From Armatimonadota bacterium (GTDB taxonomy: Bacteria; Armatimonadota; Fimbriimonadia; Fimbriimonadales; Fimbriimonadaceae), in assembly GCA_031400935.1 (NCBI GenBank), contig JANNQV010000017.1, positions 62,001-126,000 on the forward strand: a DNA stretch of 64,000 bases, read 5' to 3'. Position numbers and translations under genes: made by a program. Each line of letters opens with the position of its first letter. The first letter of the stretch is position 1. Under the pieces are notes generated by a model. It was given only the letters and a program-made list of their open reading frames with translations. It had not been told where the DNA came from and ran no database searches. Below, piece after piece: positions 59,735-62,304 of the stretch.

Positions 59735-60310
59735 CTAATCTGCAGGCTCGTCAATCTCGATAAAAATTGTCCAATAACTTGACTTTCGGCTCCGGCGGTA
59801 CAATCCGCCACCATCGTTTTGGCTCCCTGAATCGCCAGGATTTGTGTTGCCCTCATAGGAAACAATGTTGCCGGAATTGGGAACAACCCCGGCGACGATT
59901 CCGATATGCCGATTCTGGCTCTTCTTCCCATTTGAATTTGTAACTTGCATCACTCGCACGGCAAGGCGCCCACGGGCAGGTTTTTTTCGTGTTCGGCTGG
60001 ACTGATCGCCCCAACTGCGCCACTGTAGGACCGCTGCTGCAACACCTGGTTTAGGGCCGATTTTCACGTCTGCAATTTGAAAGCAGAATTCAATACTCGC
60101 AGCGCACCACGCAGCGCCTTCAGCAGTACGAGTCGAAGCGAGGATTTCCTTCACATTTGCGCCTTGATTGTTGCCGCCAACCTCGCGAACTTTGATGTCG
60201 TTGGCGAGCACTGACATTGCGAGTAGTACCTTTTCGCCGTTTGCGGACTCGTTATAGTTTGGATACCGCTGTAAAAGTATGAGTTGAACTTGGTCTTTCA
60301 AAGTCGCCAT
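59735..60310 (-). CDS. CHAP/NlpC-like peptidoglycan amidase
   Basis: E.GGNN.G, AAWCAA, HIGIV, YEGNT. Confidence 0.85.
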   Translation of the reverse strand: MATLKDQVQLILLQRYPNYNESANGEKVLLAMSVLANDIKVREVGGNNQGANVKEILASTRTAEGAAWCAASIEFCFQIADVKIGPKPGVAAAVLQWRSWGDQSSRTRKKPARGRLAVRVMQVTNSNGKKSQNRHIGIVAGVVPNSGNIVSYEGNTNPGDSGSQNDGGGLYRRSRKSSYWTIFIEIDEPAD

Positions 60311-60452
60311 AATTCAATCGTTATGAAAACGATCCGATGTCAACGAAATCTAGGTTGTTTCATGAATGTTTGGATTCGCCGGAGCTTCAATTTAGAACAA
60401 AAATGCACTTTTTGCACTTCCGAACCCGTCGAATCCATTGAGGCAAAACAAA

Positions 60453-61682
60453 ATGATTGCAGAACTGCTGATATGCGCAACAATTGTCGTTCAGTCGGCA
60501 CCTGATCGGCTAACGCATCAGAATTACGAATCAATAAAGCAGCACATTTCGTTGAAGCAACGAGATTTGGGATTTCAACAAATAGATTGGAAGTCGAGCG
60601 TATTTGATGGTGCCGTTGCCGCCAACCAACAAGACAAGCCTTCGGTGCTTTGGCTGTACTTCGGCGATCCACGCGGCGGATGCTGACAGAACGGAGTCAA
60701 GACCAGGCAGTTCGTCTGGTCCGATCCCCAAATTCTCGATTTCGTGTCTAAGAATTTCGTTGCGGTTGCTGCAAACGATGTTTCCTATTCGCAGCATTCA
60801 GACAAGAACAATTGGGAATATCGCCTCTTGGCAAGAGTGTTTGAAAGCGAAGGCTACGGGATACATCAAGGAATTTTTGTCGTAACGCCAAGCGGGAAGC
60901 TTATTCGTAACCTCAGATACGGTTGGCCGGCACCCGACCCCGTGAGAACGCTTCAAGGGCTTCGACAGTCCTTATCTGAGTACCAATCTCAATCCAAATC
61001 TGAACGATTGCTTGCCAAAGCGCCGAATCCCTCAACTGACAGGTTGAGATTTGAGAGCGAATCATTTGCGAAGCCCGCCGGAGTGCTTGACTTGAGAGTC
61101 GTCAAACGAAGTTATCCATTTGCCGGAATGACAGCGATGGATGTCCGAAGCCCAGAGTACTTTTCGATTGATCGGCTTTGGTACAAGCCTTCCGAGTATC
61201 GGGCATTGGTGCCAACGAAAATCGCAATTGGCGAATCTGTTTTGGTATCCGCGCCATTTGCACAAAGACTGGTCACGCTTTGTCATTTGATGGTGGATTG
61301 CTCGCCGTGGCGGCCCGACGAAATTCAAAAATCCAGCCTGACAAGCCGTATAGAAAAGATTGAAAGCGATATCGTTACCCTTGCCTTTTCGGCTGATTAT
61401 GCGATGTCGGCGAATTCGCAATGGAACAAAGGGCGATACAACGGCACTTCTTTAGGTTCTGCGAAGTGGGATCGGTCGAAGAGTTCGTTTGTCAGTTTCG
61501 AACTTGTCTCCTACGGAAAACACAACGTCGGCGACATGAAGCCAAACATGCATGTCGGATCGGCTGAGACGATGGTCGGTTCTATCATAACATTGAATCC
61601 GGCGGGATCCGATCCTGACAATCAAATGATTCCAACTCATTGGAAAAACGGTTATCCGAAGGGTTGGGCTGCAGGAGGCTAG
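60453..61682 (+). CDS. Exported thioredoxin-fold protein with in-frame TGA (Cys-Sec motif, U78); candidate selenoprotein
   Basis: IDW....A...DKP.VLW...GGC-TGA-QNG...WSDP.I...V.KNFVAV..QGIFVVTPSGKL is continuous in one frame. Confidence 0.8.
60693..60727 (+). promoter_or_regulatory. Candidate SECIS element
   Basis: gaccaggc-AGTTC-gtctggtc 8-bp stem; loop 22 nt after the TGA; G at loop position 2. Confidence 0.7.
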
Positions 61683-61836: not shown

Positions 61837-62304
61837 ATGAAAAAGTATTCAATTCTCGCAATCGCAGTTACAATTTGTGCATTAGGCTGCGGCAAGGCAG
61901 GCCGGTCTTTGACGGGCGAATGGAAGGCATCAGGAATCAAAAATATGCCTGAAGGTGCTTCAATGGTTTTTACAATGGCTGAACCAGATAGTCTCAAAAT
62001 GACGATGGATTTTAGTCAAGACGTTCCGGGAGGCAAGCCTATCGCAATTCATGGCGACGTAACGGGATCCTATAAGCTAGAAGGCGAAACGATGACAATC
62101 AAAGCAACAGACGTCAAGTTCTCGGCTACCGGCTTGCCCGAAGCTGCCAAACCAATGTTTGATTCGCAAATAAAGTCTATGAATGAAGGCTTGAAGAAGC
62201 AAATTAACGAGGATGGGGCATCAAAATTCAAGTGGGTCAACGATGACTCATTTACAATGACTGGGAAAGATGGCTCTCCAGCGACATTTACAAGAAAGAA
62301 GTAG
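61837..62304 (+). CDS. Lipoprotein (lipocalin-like)
   Basis: AGGAG RBS; lipobox ALGC; LTGEW. Confidence 0.8.
   Translation: MKKYSILAIAVTICALGCGKAGRSLTGEWKASGIKNMPEGASMVFTMAEPDSLKMTMDFSQDVPGGKPIAIHGDVTGSYKLEGETMTIKATDVKFSATGLPEAAKPMFDSQIKSMNEGLKKQINEDGASKFKWVNDDSFTMTGKDGSPATFTRKK

Follow-up and report, generated by a model that had tools for sequence, protein, structure and literature searches.

The gene at positions 60453..61682 (+) of the window, the whole stretch of 64,000 nucleotides from an Armatimonadota bacterium that was analysed here, belongs on sequence grounds to an uncatalogued and widespread family of UxxG selenoproteins in the clan of selenoprotein N (SELENON), and the apparent stop within it almost certainly codes for selenocysteine (Sec). 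From the recoding of this codon to the link with the SELENON clan, the observations are probably best explained by one gene for a two-domain selenoenzyme that is likely to be exported.

Within the frame 60438-61682 (+) the only internal stop is TGA 60684-60686, which lies in the sequence GDPRGGC-U-QNG. Read from the likely start, ATG 60453, whose Met also begins the orthologue from the same genus, the gene comprises 409 codons, carries the TGA as codon 78 and ends with TAG, as expected from the initial annotation of a single frame broken by the TGA only. A GAGG at 60441..60444 (+), 8 nt upstream of the ATG, resembles a Shine-Dalgarno sequence and may serve as one. Residues 1 to about 16 (60453..60500, +) form a hydrophobic N-terminus and likely signal peptide, the first block of the structural model having low pLDDT. 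A hydrophobic N-terminal stretch is found in 68 of 79 family loci, and the protein is likely to be exported by means of it.

An assembly error had been named as one way in which the TGA could mislead. One contig, possibly from the source sample, covers the entire stretch without any difference, and the contig of a second sample over 60585-60748 has no TGA change listed; since these contigs agree, the TGA does not stem from a fault of assembly, and the stronger argument is its presence in 80/80 homologous loci. The sequencing runs that contain this DNA are freshwater sediment metagenomes, and no RNA dataset is among those listed. Scanning for promoters and terminators gave chance level only, and conserved gene neighbours were not found beyond close kin, the largest cluster comprising 7/80 homologous loci. 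By eye, the flanking ORF 59735-60310 (-) resembles a CHAP-type amidase and the ORF 61837-62304 (+) a lipoprotein.

The genome itself encodes selA, selB, selD and a tRNA-Sec with anticodon TCA, so that the selA/selB/selC/selD set for which the initial annotation had suggested looking is all present, and its selD itself has an in-frame TGA. Matches were obtained in 24 of 61 related genomes, and the aligned codon in the relatives' loci is TGA in 23/25 and an Asp codon in 2/25. TGA-bearing strong matches to the family profile occur in 22 of 41 selA-positive relatives versus 0 of 20 selA-negative ones, a count in which kin are not independent and for which the profile was built partly from the same genomes. 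Among selA-negative genomes there is a single strong match, in G034, and the residue at the site is Asp. A scan of GTDB found 456 related stretches, and in all 80 loci returned, from Armatimonadota, Planctomycetota, Verrucomicrobiota, Marinimicrobia and Gemmatimonadota, the site is TGA with an open frame behind it. The named relatives nearest to the query are from Fimbriimonadales, which is probably the order of the host as well. Among the 80 GTDB loci, 50 were examined for selA, which is present in 48 of these 50 further carrier genomes. The site is never TAA or TAG, and because TGA closes just 433 of the 1358 long ORFs of the query's own genome, an invariant TGA is not explained by stop-codon preference. 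There is very little room for doubt that the in-frame TGA encodes Sec78.

The hairpin that would direct this insertion lies at 60701..60721 (+). Its stem (60701-60708 with 60714-60721) has eight pairs, one of them G-U, and its loop AGUUC (60709-60713) starts 22 nt past the TGA and holds a conserved G at 60710, so the 8-bp stem and AGTTC loop that had been pointed out 22 nt downstream of the TGA were found as described. Published bSECIS criteria are a loop of 3-9 nt with G among its first two bases, a stem of 4-16 bp, a UGA distance of 16-37 nt and an MFE <= -7.5 (PMC13188914), and the present hairpin falls within all of them (a 5-nt loop whose second base is G, a stem of 8 bp, a distance of 22 nt and -16.6 kcal/mol). 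Taken alone its folding energy is modest evidence (z -2.35, with 3/200 shuffles equally good). Family-wide codon constraint, analysed in 92 distinct genes of 103, shows that the hairpin exceeds chance. For example, 89/92 distinct genes have a G as the second base of the loop, at nt 27 from the T of the TGA, and this G is kept across Gln, Arg, Ala and Val codons. Similarly, Arg at +8 uses a G-ending codon in 36/36 cases against a background of 29%, and Val at +10 uses GTC or GTT in 88/88 against 58%. Compared with synonymous resampling, folding has a mean z of -1.72 and is negative in 85/92 genes, against -0.14 elsewhere in the genes; in the query gene the hairpin window has z -2.34 and ranks 2 of 27 windows.

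On the other side stand the covariation tests. With 23 sequences none was detected (465/500 shuffles were as high) and RNAalifold found no consensus on the 23 rows. With 74 sequences the score lies above 499/500 shuffles, though relatedness can produce that; of the six pairs, one holds in all 74 rows, but two fail (in 44 rows and in 36), and one subfamily has an alternative hairpin closer to the TGA. As it appears in these alignments, the SECIS signal is a short stem beneath a fixed loop G, with no long conserved helix. The hairpin of selD (G000:C15:155711-156616, -) has an MFE fold without G in the first two loop positions, unlike the consensus model.

The predicted structure of the protein has a pLDDT of 94 and a pTM of 0.91. 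Residues ~40-185 (60570..61007, +) form a thioredoxin-fold domain of the DsbD-gamma/DsbH/Thioredoxin_7 kind, with DsbD-gamma, DsbH, ERp18 and AGR as the closest fold types. Structural matches include 3f9u (VIA, Z 13.6, rmsd 3.5, 128 residues), 2lst (Z 11.2) and 7tkv (Foldseek, E 6e-4). In sequence searches, no Pfam or NCBIfam family was above cut-off for the query (a Pfam score of 14.6 where 27 is required), weak matches only were seen among 111 rows, PF13192, the domain of the thioredoxin-like selenoproteins Sec.1 (CxU) and Sec.2 (UxC), had no match in these rows at E<=0.05, and the best E of a PDB sequence search was 0.15. The fold as modelled bears out the suggestion of a thioredoxin-like domain with the TGA at the redox-motif position: Sec78 (60684..60686, +) stands just ahead of helix 79-87, whose start it marks, in the register of the first Cys of CxxC. 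In a gapless comparison with the CxxC thioredoxin and the UxxC DsbD of the same genome, Sec78 falls on the first Cys and Gly on the second, hence the family motif UxxG, or U-x-N-G in fuller form; UxxG is found in 79/80 loci and UxxA in one.

Cys77 (60681..60683, +), vicinal to Sec in the sequence, is a candidate resolving residue. The upstream Cys is at -1 in 24/80 loci, at -2 in 51 and at -3 in one, and is missing or masked in 4, so that the vicinal Cys-Sec pair proposed initially stands for this subfamily but not as a trait of the family. Besides Sec, the family conserves Asn+2, Gly+3, Arg85, Gln139 and Trp67. Gln139-Gly140 (60867..60872, +; Q in 79/91 and G in 88/92 rows) occupies what, by thioredoxin topology, would be the usual site of the cis-Pro, a residue typical of protein-disulfide oxidoreductases. 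Judging by this topology and by the alignment with SELENON, Gln seems to replace the cis-Pro.

Residues 195-409 (61035..61679, +) form a C-terminal beta-sheet domain, which reaches a pLDDT of 93 when folded alone. Its conserved residues are Arg219, Asp240, Trp243, Glu248, Pro394 and Tyr401. This is the large part that had been called uncharacterised, and it passes no Pfam or NCBIfam threshold and has no clear PDB match: the best Z against PDB structures is 6.9, to generic barrels, and Foldseek gave none at E<=1e-3. A missing PDB match is no proof of a new fold.

The link to SELENON, absent from the initial annotation, was first suggested by a likeness of motif. In the ESM Atlas, the top match of a natural Cys homologue (P0040) is a cluster named 'Selenoprotein N' (score 0.89), which is a lead only. 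A short motif search gave 32 metagenome loci, including ten long eukaryote-type frames, here called SELENON from SCUG and from the membrane segment and EF-hand-like loop that nine of them have, and one of bacterial type (L142). The motif SCUG is that of SELENON (PMC8584023). With L142 as query, bacterial-type relatives were found in 20 of 401 genomes of the phylum of Bythopirellula. The thioredoxin domain of the query family matches a mostly eukaryotic SELENON alignment (HH 86%, E 4.9e-6) and the bacterial SELENON-type (HH 97.8%, E 1.2e-12), with Sec aligned to Sec. Word-indexed protein searches returned no eukaryotic protein for query A1 and one relative only for L142.

The C-terminal beta domain in turn probably matches the part of SELENON-type proteins that precedes their thioredoxin domain (HH 77%, E 2.1e-5, 130 columns), and hence the domain order looks swapped. 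The family is very probably one of a clan of UxxG thioredoxin-fold selenoproteins to which animal selenoprotein N belongs as well, and both domains are probably common to the two, in reverse order. The likeness could instead reflect a shared thioredoxin subfamily only, with an unrelated C-terminal beta domain, which we regard as possible but rather doubtful. Several results are in its favour. The probability of the beta-domain match varies with the profile (91%, E 1.1e-6, with a second; 12% with a third; just 28% with a three-row SELENON-type profile), the match to eukaryotic SELENON alone is not significant (0.4-2%), HMM-to-sequence searches failed to place the partner domain ahead of 30,689 decoy ORFs, and a 15-column block shuffle scored 37.9 against 38.1. 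Against it, every profile pair gives the same collinear alignment of 121-132 columns, six half-jackknifes remain at 42-74%, and reversed and 8-column-shuffled controls reach <=25.6 versus 38.1.

The tree of the thioredoxin domain (57 rows, 131 columns, rooted at the midpoint, with outgroup branches that are long and with 8 of the 13 bacterial SELENON-type rows included) bears on the same question. The UxxG two-domain family forms its own clade (99/99) and eukaryotic SELENON lies among the bacterial SELENON-type rows (98/91). Other bacterial Sec-thioredoxins, which lack the beta domain, are closer to SELENON than the UxxG two-domain family is (94/84), a position that suits a likeness confined to the thioredoxin domain. 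On balance we lean towards a domain-permuted sister of SELENON, soluble and without EF-hand, in which case SELENON would represent one branch within a large, as yet uncatalogued clan of bacterial proteins and the beta domain the ancient substrate-binding half of the enzyme core. Without SCUG, EF-hand and the SELENON domain order, the protein is a relative of SELENON and not a member or orthologue.

The thioredoxin domain of SELENON holds its Sec (PMC7474598). The bacterial protein resembles animal SELENON in this domain, in which Sec occupies the equivalent site, Cys directly precedes it and Gly and Arg follow at +3 and +7, and further in what is probably the same beta domain and in a location in the secretory pathway, which for the bacterial protein would follow from its N-terminus. 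It differs in having no EF-hand family match, where SELENON carries an EF-hand behind an N-terminal type II anchor in the membrane, in a thioredoxin domain that comes directly after the hydrophobic stretch with no membrane anchor, and in the order of domains, which is thioredoxin then beta here and beta then thioredoxin in SELENON. Moreover, SCUG is replaced by GCUQ here and mostly CTUN in the family, Gln stands in place of the Pro of the FPV loop, the SECIS is inside the coding region, and the clade is separate. The bacterial SELENON-type (Planctomycetota L150-L159 and metagenome L142) shares the UxxG thioredoxin domain, the in-frame TGA with a downstream hairpin and probably the beta domain, but has the SELENON domain order and a GGUC loop at nt 28-31 as against the 5-nt loop at 26-30 here. 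It is this type, not the UxxG two-domain family, that encloses the eukaryotic clade.

Among catalogued bacterial families the nearest is that of the VPGUxxT selenoproteins (NF041383, NF041382), with a weak HMM match in 6/111 rows (best E 1.7e-4). These share Sec at the attacking site and a Thioredoxin_7-like fold, whereas the query has no NCBIfam match at E<=1, the motif UxxG and an extra beta domain. The fold of residues 40-185 is also like that of DsbD-gamma, DsbH/DUF255 and Thioredoxin_7 proteins (3f9u, 2ju5, 3ira, 2lst; Z 10-13.6), families of which CxxC is typical. Compared with the CxxC of 3ira, the second Cys is a Gly here.

A mechanism can be proposed from these features. SelB with Sec-tRNA would bind the hairpin and insert Sec78, and the hydrophobic N-terminus would carry the protein out of the cytoplasm, presumably to the periplasm. 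In the model, Sec78 is placed at the start of the active-site helix, the site of the attacking Cys of thioredoxins, with Gly in place of the resolving Cys. The selenolate could then attack an envelope substrate at an oxidised sulfur centre, and the mixed intermediate might be resolved as a selenenyl-sulfide by Cys77, or by the -2 Cys in most relatives. This resolving step is not universal, as the upstream Cys is missing or masked in four of the 80 loci and 20/30 full-length homologues have neither Cys nor Sec at the Sec site. Re-reduction would plausibly be by DsbD, encoded in this genome with its own TGA, and the tightly packed C-terminal beta domain may dock the substrate. The DsbD-like gene (G000:C45:89793-91874, +) has its TGA at the first Cys of CxxC (UTNC) and is a candidate electron donor.

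By analogy with SEPN1 (PMC7474598) and with the fold neighbours, the protein may be a selenol reductase directed at proteins, a role to which we give an even chance. A selenoenzyme of peroxidase or dehalogenase type, with a small molecule or lipid in the beta domain and Sec assisted by conserved Asn, Gln, Arg and Trp, rather than by disulfide exchange with proteins, appears unlikely. The apparent Gln for cis-Pro and the dispensability of the upstream Cys in some members suggest such a small-molecule role, as do the lack of a CxxC partner and the conservation of the five residues listed above, a set that we liken to the Sec-Gln-Trp-Asn of glutathione peroxidases. Against this role, the fold neighbours are DsbD-gamma, DsbH, ERp18 and AGR and not peroxiredoxins or glutathione peroxidases, and the beta domain has no clear match to a ligand-binding fold. 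Furthermore, PMC7474598 presents SEPN1 as a reductase whose partners are proteins.

The recoding is reflected in the way the family appears in databases. Their 164 proteins consist of 26 N-terminal pieces, 108 C-terminal pieces and 30 that span the site, and all 26 N-terminal fragments end exactly one residue before the TGA, as anticipated from the earlier remark that gene callers would split the gene. The residue at the site in the 30 spanning proteins is Cys in 10, Ser in 8, Asp in 4, Ala in 3, Trp in 2 and Arg, Gly and Asn in one each. Homologues with TGA or Cys at this position, which had been proposed as a check, were thus obtained in both forms, and the Trp or Arg named as evidence to the contrary touches 3/30 full-length proteins (two Trp, one Arg). 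That the TGA is a true stop, between two genes or in a pseudogene, or is read as Trp is highly improbable, for although the halves are separate in databases and Trp does occur in full-length homologues, the stop is always TGA and always in frame (80/80 loci), splits a folded domain and in this form is confined to selA genomes, the C-terminal fragments begin at many different positions, the normal stops of the genome include TGA, its tRNA list has Trp with a CCA anticodon only, and the two Trp proteins may be code-4 gene calls. These two (P0012 and P0140) keep the TGA-type context apart from the Trp in place of Sec and may represent TGA translated with code 4. Among full-length members, Asp or Ser takes the place of Sec in L027 (G007), L031 (G034), P0038, P0046 and P0049; some of these sit in selA-positive genomes, and they are possibly inactive or repurposed copies.

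The family appears to be new to the literature. No matching family is present among the 119 prokaryotic families in the accessible part of Table 1 of PMC13188914, and no description of a UxxG two-domain family or of bacterial SELENON relatives was found in the portions of the literature available. Table S9 of PMC4807772 names a planctomycete 'hypothetical' and two 'thiol-disulfide isomerase-like' candidates, given without sequences and known by label only, and metazoan additions include SelN (PMC7016017). The present analysis contributes evidence from profiles for both domains, the position in the tree and the codon-level evidence for the SECIS. A doctoral thesis reportedly deals with a Poribacteria SELENON orthologue, which concerns the SELENON-type, the other bacterial type.

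With 456 matching stretches in GTDB genomes and, from a separate search, 320 clusters at 50% identity, the family is widespread, and its gene is split by annotation. Selenoprotein N causes a congenital myopathy and, according to the available part of PMC7474598, had no solved structure as of 2020 and is difficult to purify. The catalysis of SELENON and the role of its large unnamed domain would become testable in a soluble bacterial relative that has natural Cys variants. The domain swap, if true, would set the boundaries of the beta domain, and the bacterial protein would open this structurally unsolved domain to crystallography and assay.

The hairpin known as the SRE follows the UGA in eukaryotic SELENON (PMC8584023). 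Over the 54 nt that start with the TGA (L113-L144, L142, L150-L159), its loop lies over nt 28-29 in 21/23 distinct rows of eukaryotic SELENON, and 7/11 genes of the bacterial SELENON-type form their loop from GGUC at nt 28-31. It is possible that the SRE is what is left of a bacterial SECIS; a shared protein sequence would be another explanation for the likeness.

Related TGA-bearing genes are present in the same 3-Mb genome, which has six clan candidates. Two paralogues, G000:C18:104590-105912 and C18:77019-78998 (+), have TGA at the same codon (GCT-U-NNG) and both have the beta domain. Three more genes of thioredoxin-like type, G000:C61:39196-40185 (+, GDT-U), C58:5845-6903 (+, GDW-U) and C17:138673-139857 (-, GHT-U), have their TGA at the attacking site; their C-terminal parts differ, and the one on C61 is nearer to SELENON than the UxxG two-domain family is. 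In Planctomycetota, L145-L149 represent uncatalogued TGA-bearing thioredoxin families with the motifs QLC-U, DGL-U and EKC-U, whose matches to the SELENON profile have E values from 6e-9 to 6e-6.
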